A DNA stretch of 64,000 bases from Escherichia coli (GTDB lineage: Bacteria > Pseudomonadota > Gammaproteobacteria > Enterobacterales > Enterobacteriaceae), in NCBI RefSeq assembly GCF_003334305.1, contig NZ_QOWS01000003.1; one strand, written 5' to 3'. The position numbers and the translations under genes were made by a program. Under the pieces are notes generated by a model. It was given only the letters and a program-made list of their open reading frames with translations, was not told the DNA's origin and ran no database searches. Positions 23,196 to 23,596 of the stretch are shown here, piece by piece (position 1 is the stretch's first letter; the number at the start of each line of letters is the position of its first letter).

Positions 23196-23596
23196 GTGGA
23201 TTTCCTCAAAAGTCAGCAGGGCAAAAGCGCCAAAAAACGGCAGATTGCCGAAAAAGGCCGCAATTATACACAAAATCCCTGAGTTTGTCGGGGGTACTGC
23301 TGATTTTAGACGACGATCGTTTTCATTTGAAAGGAAACGCAAAAAGAAAATAATCTTTTTGCCTCTATTTATTATTTAAGATAATGTTAATGCTCTACTT
23401 GTTCTTTTTTTTATTCACATGATATTTTTATCTTTCTGACGTTTTAAACGTATCAGAAGACGTTATTTATTCTGATAAAAAACAACACACTAAATATAAA
23501 ATTATTTCTTGCAGTAATTATAAAAGCCGAAAACAGAACTCAAAAACAATCTGGCTAAATAAAAGTAACAAAATTTGCTTTAAGGAAGAATTTTCT

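Follow-up and report, generated by a model that had tools for sequence, protein, structure and literature searches.

AT-rich DNA upstream of promoters is the usual composition in enterobacteria. The described systems closest to such a region in Escherichia coli are the divergent spacers carrying sigma-70 promoters, the regions silenced by H-NS (proU, bgl and acquired islands), the FliA (sigma-28) class 3 promoters, such as that of tsr, and the leaders with 5' stabilising stem-loops or attenuators, such as the ompA 5' UTR. The locus considered here lies between yjdM and crfC (also named yjdA or rdcA). Together with rdcB (yjcZ), rdcA encodes the GTPase system switching on the master diguanylate cyclase DgcE. 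RdcA acts in post-exponential cells. Through c-di-GMP, RdcA and RdcB contribute to the control of biofilm formation (PMC6510439). Fitzgerald et al. found a single FliA site at the locus, inside yjdA, where the motif TAAAGTTCTGGCAGAGCAGGTCGATGAA drives yjcZ (PMC4183435). In the global and differential RNA-seq of Romero et al., a single 5' end falls between the two genes, listed as 'RVS_(III) 4324853-4324858', class III designating a coverage leading edge without enrichment as a primary 5' end (PMC4681348).

Setting, composition and conservation of the yjdM–crfC gap

The window is the whole 64-kb stretch of DNA that was analysed. The segment of the E. coli chromosome around the gap carries phnC, yjdN, yjdM, crfC/yjdA/rdcA and yjcZ/rdcB. 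The yjdM gene occupies positions 22860-23195 on the minus strand, with its ATG at 23195-23193, and crfC positions 23597-25825 on the plus strand, with its start codon at 23597. Positions 23196-23596 are exactly the 401-bp intergenic gap between yjdM (minus) and crfC (plus); the sequence-only reading had assigned both gene names and the description "AT-rich divergent region" correctly. A query of 601 nt with the gap in its middle finds matches of at least 96.7% identity in 5414 of the 5426 complete E. coli genomes, at a median of one place per genome. One substitution (23412) and one extra G (23565) are the sole differences between this gap and that of K-12, and no feature is annotated in it, either in K-12 MG1655 (NC_000913.3) or in the strain identical to the window. 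The gap is not a member of the REP/BIME or ERIC families, as it is found at a median of one place per genome and has no family match inside.

The GC content of the gap is 0.314, versus 0.516 for the whole window, and only 0.14% of the 401-nt windows in the 64 kb are equally AT-rich. The minimum for such windows (0.307) is located at 23223-23232. The earlier statement that this is among the most AT-rich stretches is therefore borne out, the gap being the most AT-rich 400 bp of the window. Further AT-rich 401-nt windows, with a GC content of 0.32-0.35, start at 49022, 34177, 56505, 45395, 58337 and 10123. The AT-richness is uneven: GC reaches 0.46 in the 115 bp on the yjdM side (23196-23310) versus 0.25 in 23311-23596. 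In this AT-rich segment the TpA density is about twice the window average, and A and T tracts are numerous.

On the other side of yjdM, the yjdN-yjdM gap (22701-22859) is 159 bp long and harbors a single REP/naRNA4-like unit at 22765-22842 (Rfam RF02564, 87.5 bits). This unit, downstream of yjdM and outside the yjdM–crfC gap, is the only real Rfam match. The K-12 counterpart measures 657 bp and contains the six-repeat REP325 cluster; REP copy number at this site is therefore variable between strains. According to a 2026 preprint, REP325 stabilises the yjdM mRNA.

About ten enterobacterial genera were compared by a protein-guided scan, with one genome per species, together with look-ups of YjdM variants. 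A crfC gene with a divergent yjdM upstream is found in two further Escherichia lineages, Citrobacter koseri, C. amalonaticus and Yokenella, and crfC lies beside yjdM also in Leclercia, Scandinavium and Cronobacter. Instead of crfC, proP is found beside yjdM in Klebsiella, Pluralibacter, E. albertii and the enterobacterial genome L025; in Serratia, the neighbour of yjdM is miaB. The E. coli CrfC shares 59-68% identity with that of Citrobacter or Yokenella, versus 91-95% for YjdM, and crfC therefore evolves fast. More distant CrfC-like proteins of the dynamin family (35-45% identity) occur in Aquaspirillum, Allochromatium, Pantoea and the cyanobacteria Brasilonema and Scytonema. Two database entries look like E. 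coli contamination of assemblies: a MAG contig assigned to 'Leptolinea sp.', carrying YjdM and the first 148 CrfC residues, 100% identical to E. coli, and a 241-bp scaffold of Gleimia coleocanis whose CrfC fragment has 96% identity with its E. coli counterpart.

The alignments split the gap in three: a yjdM-proximal block A (23196-23333), a centre (23334-23499) and a crfC-proximal block B (~23500-23596). Within Escherichia, an alignment of seven E. coli strains and two cryptic-clade genomes was used. Among the seven E. coli strains, variable columns make up 12.3% of the centre; the corresponding figures are 0.7% for block A, 5.2% for block B and 1-3% for the coding sequence on either side. The identity of the centre to the cryptic Escherichia clades (0.74-0.87) is lower than that of synonymous sites (0.90-0.92), and against Citrobacter and Yokenella the identity of 23301-23500 drops to 0.19-0.50, which makes it effectively unalignable. 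The centre, a strandless AT-rich spacer that includes the palindromes at 23434-23477, thus appears unconstrained and seems to drift, palindromes included, at a roughly neutral rate.

The gap is, in all likelihood, an ordinary divergent regulatory region composed of two gene-proximal modules separated by an unconstrained AT-rich spacer. Hexamers of the -35 and -10 types, spaced by 16-18 bp, are found on both strands and face the flanking genes, and promoter elements are conserved together with the gene that they serve, yjdM or crfC. The mapped 5' ends in the gap consist of one class III edge for yjdM (23290-23295), and none is listed for crfC. The yjdM module (23196-23333) would comprise one or two sigma-70-type promoters, a leader of ~60-100 nt and a strong Shine-Dalgarno sequence, and it accompanies yjdM across Enterobacteriaceae regardless of the presence of crfC beside it. 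The crfC/rdcA module (~23500-23596) would be formed by a TATAAA -10-like element beside GCCGAAAA, an A/U-rich leader and the ribosome-binding region; as it has no good -35, its promoter is probably weak or activator-dependent. The ~170 bp between the modules would be a drifting spacer, which may bind nucleoid proteins non-specifically. The composition, the pattern of conservation, the promoter-like hexamers, the one published yjdM 5' edge and the lack of FliA binding in the gap are observations; which hexamers fire, the crfC start site and any protein binding are inferred.

The yjdM-proximal and crfC-proximal modules

The yjdM 5' leader (23196-23262, minus strand) contains a GAGGA Shine-Dalgarno sequence (plus-strand positions 23203-23207) and a small hairpin, CGGCA-AUC-UGCCG (23238-23250, minus strand), which is followed by a U-run and was flagged as terminator-like. 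A consensus scan detects a proximal sigma-70-type promoter upstream of it (23263-23291, minus strand, 10/12 matches), with a CCGACA -35 at 23291-23286, a 17-bp spacer and a TATAAT -10 at 23268-23263; the start is predicted at about 23256-23259. The scan also yields a distal yjdM promoter candidate (23303-23331, minus strand) with a TTCAAA -35 at 23331-23326, a 17-bp spacer and a TAAAAT -10 at 23308-23303, for which the predicted start is at about 23296. On the plus strand, a promoter-like TTGAAA-16-AATAAT (23327-23354, 10/12) is intact within Escherichia only, and its TTGAAA overlaps the distal yjdM -35 back to back (23326-23332). The number of promoter-like sites in the gap (five, versus 2.0 +/- 1.4 in shuffles) is mildly above chance.

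The proximal promoter is kept throughout the family. Its CCCGACAA and TATAAT are nearly invariant in Escherichia, Citrobacter, Yokenella, Leclercia, Scandinavium, Klebsiella and Pluralibacter, and the promoter is retained in 14 of 15 sequences, crfC-less genomes included. Between E. coli and Citrobacter, identity amounts to 85-94% over 23196-23255 and 78-87% over 23256-23300, for a baseline of 72-75% at third positions of unchanged yjdM codons. Block A is also kept beside yjdM where proP replaces crfC, in Klebsiella, Pluralibacter and genome L025; in the latter, homology to the window stops at 23308, which marks the outer limit of the yjdM-owned sequence. The distal element is conserved inside Escherichia, E. 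albertii included, and not beyond. With an offset of 1976 between U00096.2 and U00096.3, measured on the FliA motif inside yjdA, the RVS_(III) edge converts to window positions 23290-23295 on the minus strand, 1-6 nt from the predicted distal start. The only mapped 5' edge therefore fits the genus-specific distal promoter, and none is found at the proximal promoter conserved family-wide. The RpoD SELEX list includes the yjdN/yjdM spacer, and the yjdM–crfC gap is absent from it.

Leclercia (CGACA/UGUCG) and Klebsiella (CGGCU/AGCCG) retain the leader hairpin through sequence changes. The covariation of the hairpin is not significant, the score being matched by 68 of 500 shuffles, and the leader folds no better than shuffled sequences (z = -1.0 in its short form, -0.15 in its long one). 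Only Escherichia and Citrobacter preserve the U-run. The idea that the yjdM leader acts as a riboswitch or attenuator was considered and rejected, since neither fold nor covariation is significant and Term-seq gives no 3' end. The yjdM frame remains open upstream of the ATG for 49 codons up to a TTG, forming a 160-codon ORF (22860-23342, minus strand), an extension called by some gene finders. Many N-terminally extended 'PhnA/YjdM' calls, of 144-165 aa and from several genera, are present in public protein sets; the strong Shine-Dalgarno sequence before the annotated ATG argues that these are over-extensions. In E. coli AVS0747, the homology to the window breaks off 12 nt before the yjdM start codon (23208 onward), at a junction with a truncated cupin gene and electron-transfer-flavoprotein genes, and the whole gap and crfC are therefore missing at that position.

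On the crfC side, the conserved motif GTAATTATAAAAGCCGAAAA (23513-23533, plus strand) includes a candidate crfC -10, TATAAA (23519-23524), adjoined by the conserved octamer GCCGAAAA (23526-23533, plus strand). No recognisable -35 is found upstream of TATAAA, and the crfC start is predicted near 23531. A conserved leader and translation-initiation region follows, GGCTAAATAAAAGTAAcAAAATTTGCtTTAAGGAAG (23554-23596, plus strand), with an AAGGA Shine-Dalgarno sequence at 23582-23586. In Escherichia, Citrobacter, Leclercia and Cronobacter, GTAATTATAAAAGCCGAAAA shows little or no change, and conservation extends to the ribosome-binding region, AAATTTGC(G/T)TTAAGGAA. Furthermore, AAATTTG(C/T)(G/T)TTAAGG is present in all nine crfC-bearing sequences, and the leader (23554-23596) is 81-86% identical between E. 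coli and Citrobacter. This leader displays no significant fold (z = -0.33) and no compensatory pair.

The E. albertii locus (record L026, 2054-3000) offers one natural case in which the gene of the crfC module is lost. Most of crfC-yjcZ is deleted and proP now lies beside yjdM; what remains is the full gap, 62 nt from the beginning of crfC and pieces of yjcZ. Block A is intact there through window position 23333, and the block B motif has decayed to TTAATT-TGGAAGCCGAAAG. TATAAA (23519-23524) would be constrained because it serves crfC, and the E. albertii decay, observed in one lineage only, fits this. Since the start-site table covering the region lists no crfC start, the assignment of a crfC promoter to the TATAAA motif is drawn from its conservation, and the motif presumably plays that role. 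E. coli EC596 carries an IS1 insertion 60 bp before the crfC start codon (window 23536/23537), between TATAAA/GCCGAAAA and the ribosome-binding region, which probably uncouples crfC from its native promoter.

Two post-transcriptional candidates were set aside for this leader. CsrA control of the crfC Shine-Dalgarno sequence, with a GGA in an A/U hairpin loop, is speculative: the hairpin is weak, compensatory pairs are lacking and no literature support was found. The GlnZ sRNA forms chimeras with rdcA-rdcB in which pairing occurs at the rdcB ribosome-binding site; targeting of the crfC leader by GlnZ was rejected, as this published pairing site is outside the gap.

Alternative readings of the gap

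The most probable of the alternatives is compatible with the divergent regulatory region proposed above, on which it would superimpose a further layer. The AT-rich 23311-23596 may be bound in vivo by H-NS, or by Fis or IHF, silencing or modulating crfC/rdcA and possibly yjdM; this is a tentative proposal, against which the balance tilts somewhat. The gap does contain an extended AT-rich tract of the kind found in H-NS-silenced regions (GC 0.25 over the 285 bp of 23311-23596), with its doubled TpA density and many A/T tracts. The lack of a good -35 for crfC, the failure of one data set to detect a crfC start and the IS1 found here in one strain point in the same direction. IS1 insertion is typical of AT-rich DNA. 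However, the high-affinity nucleation motif TCGATAAATT does not occur in 23196-23596 at up to two mismatches, versus 98 matches elsewhere in the window. The region is moreover core and syntenic rather than acquired, as 5414 of 5426 E. coli genomes and several genera possess it, and the literature search gave no link of yjdA to H-NS binding at the gap. From base composition alone, binding of H-NS or another nucleoid protein to the gap is plausible.

A specific regulator acting on block B is a more remote prospect, and an unlikely one. In that reading, 23513-23596 would form a -35-less control element of rdcA/rdcB, dependent on an activator or an anti-silencer, in which a protein or RNA regulator would bind either an AGCCG-N23-25-CGGCT dyad or AAATTTGCGTTAAGG. 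The dyad is conserved and spans the predicted crfC start, and AAATTTGCGTTAAGG is invariant and adjoins the crfC Shine-Dalgarno sequence.

It is very improbable that the conserved GCCGAAAA (23526-23533) represents the -10 of a FliA promoter, with crfC as a flagellar class 3 gene. The tsr FliA promoter has exactly this octamer as its -10 (Fitzgerald et al., PMC4183435), the octamer is invariant in the crfC-bearing genera, and in a fliA mutant the yjdA RNA value drops about 10-fold, from 111 to 11 (PMC4183435). However, no TAAAG-like -35 is found at the required 11-bp spacing, where an unconserved TCTTGCAG stands instead. With up to three mismatches, the sigma-28 consensus TAAAGTTT-N11-GCCGATAA has its sole match in the 64-kb window at 25570 and none in the gap, where only the -10-like GCCGAAAA is found. 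The published motif is unchanged in this strain, at 25570-25597 inside crfC, ~260 nt from the crfC stop codon. The FliA ChIP-seq and SELEX peaks are at 4327146-4327160 (U00096.2), inside yjdA, and RpoF SELEX agrees with this intragenic placement; in these data binding occurs only inside yjdA. Fitzgerald et al. state that the upstream yjdA FliA promoter was 'incorrectly predicted' (PMC4183435). A FliA promoter in the gap is therefore rejected by the consensus search as well as by the published ChIP-seq and SELEX. The intragenic promoter near the crfC 3' end does not obviously explain the fliA-dependent drop in yjdA RNA; an indirect action of fliA on the upstream promoter is possible. In 2007, Zhao et al. 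reportedly predicted crfC as a flagellar class 3 gene from expression data. Their main text has no yjdA entry.

The sequence-only reading had suggested an unannotated small transcript, and the chance that the gap encodes a small RNA or a small protein is equally slight. Promoter-like and terminator-like sites do exist in the gap: the transcript would either initiate at TTGAAA-16-AATAAT (23327-23354) or correspond to a yjdM leader terminated after the 23238-23250 hairpin, which has its U-run early in the leader. Against this, an Rfam search relaxed to E <= 10 gives no match in the gap. In the Term-seq tables of Adams et al. (PMC7815308), the interval 4326600-4327199 is free of 3' ends and none of the names yjdM, yjdA, crfC or rdcA appears, and the start-site table (PMC4681348) has no plus-strand 5' end for 4324900-4325199 (U00096.2). 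No independent transcript with its own 5' and 3' ends is found in the gap in these tables, which cover limited growth conditions. The centre is unconserved, the leader folds stay within the shuffle range without significant covariation, and the U-run does not extend beyond Escherichia and Citrobacter. Apart from the artefactual 160-codon TTG-started yjdM extension, a search of the gap for ORFs of 20 codons or more yields only unconserved ones of 21-28 codons. With a yjdM 5' edge only, no 3' end and no Rfam match, the small transcript is therefore not supported. The conserved blocks are only the gene-proximal promoter and leader segments, and the sole 5' edge is that of yjdM. This is essentially the outcome that the sequence-only reading had itself named as a refutation, and its interpretation is upheld only in part.

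The last alternative concerns the palindromes of the centre. The string pointed out in the sequence-only reading, CTGACGTTTTAAACGTATCAGAAGACGTT (23436-23464), is seen in the sequence and covers several inverted repeats: ACGTTT-T-AAACGT (23439-23451), TTCTGA-N13-TCAGAA (23434-23458) and, overlapping its end, TATCAGAA-N11-TTCTGATA with 8-nt arms (23451-23477). A perfect 9-bp repeat, GCAAAAAGA-N6-TCTTTTTGC, is located nearer to yjdM (23339-23362); it is A/T-rich with three G-C pairs and coincides with no mapped 3' end in the Term-seq tables. O26:H11, MS8324 and Escherichia sp. E1V33 have it in a broken or altered form, and Citrobacter lacks it. Compared with 500 dinucleotide-preserving shuffles of the gap, the inverted repeats with arms of at least 6 nt number 12 versus 6.8 +/- 4.6 (p = 0.13), those with arms of at least 8 nt three versus 0.6 (p = 0.06), and the longest arm is 9 nt versus 7.2 (p = 0.12). 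As number and length are within the shuffle range, the palindromes are a chance product of such a sequence. Six polymorphic positions fall inside them (23454, 23455, 23457, 23461, 23474 and 23476). The palindromes are thus present as real inverted repeats, as had been noted, while they do not exceed shuffles, are polymorphic and are absent outside Escherichia; the suggested conservation check places them in the unconserved, polymorphic middle of the gap. That ACGTTT-T-AAACGT and TATCAGAA-N11-TTCTGATA are operators of a dimeric transcription factor controlling crfC or yjdM is hardly credible: the repeats are genuine and the 8-nt arms are perfect in the window strain and K-12, but only there, since in five of the seven E. 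coli strains and in the cryptic clades they are broken (TATCGGAA or TATTGGGA paired with TTCTAATA) by changes that are not compensatory, the repeats are not enriched over shuffles, and nothing alignable is found in Citrobacter, Yokenella, Leclercia or Cronobacter.

Comparison with known systems

The divergent regulatory region with two gene-proximal modules is thus the reading retained for the gap. A candidate sRNA or silencing locus is struck from the list, and the gap has little importance beyond housekeeping. It also recalls that the palindromes of very AT-rich spacers are usually due to chance. As a by-product, testable coordinates of candidate promoters are provided for yjdM and crfC/rdcA, the latter being of some interest via the c-di-GMP control of biofilm (PMC6510439).

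Among the known systems, the 5' stabilising stem-loops and attenuators, as in the ompA 5' UTR, resemble the yjdM leader by its 5-bp hairpin, which recurs in several genera, with ~8 nt separating it from the predicted 5' end and a U-run behind it. Unlike ompA-type leaders, neither the covariation nor the energy of the yjdM hairpin is significant, no premature 3' end is found, and the U-run is not conserved. With the FliA class 3 promoters, the gap shares the octamer GCCGAAAA, present in the tsr -10. It differs from them by the lack of the TAAAGTTT -35 and of FliA binding in vivo or in vitro, and the genuine FliA promoter of the locus, inside crfC (25570-25597), drives yjcZ/rdcB. The H-NS-silenced regions (proU, bgl, acquired islands) are closer in composition, the gap displaying a GC content of ~25% over nearly 300 bp, A-tracts and TpA steps. 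In contrast to them, it is core syntenic DNA and carries no high-affinity nucleation motif.

The divergent sigma-70 spacers of E. coli provide the nearest likeness. Unlike these, the gap has a mapped 5' end on the yjdM side only, and its crfC -10-like element is not accompanied by a -35. Like them, it separates two outward-facing genes by ~400 bp, bears hexamers on both strands, with overlapping -35s at 23326-23332, and shows a conservation limited to the gene-proximal promoter and leader segments, the upstream DNA being AT-rich. The gap is nothing new in kind: it is an intergenic promoter region of the best-studied bacterial genome.
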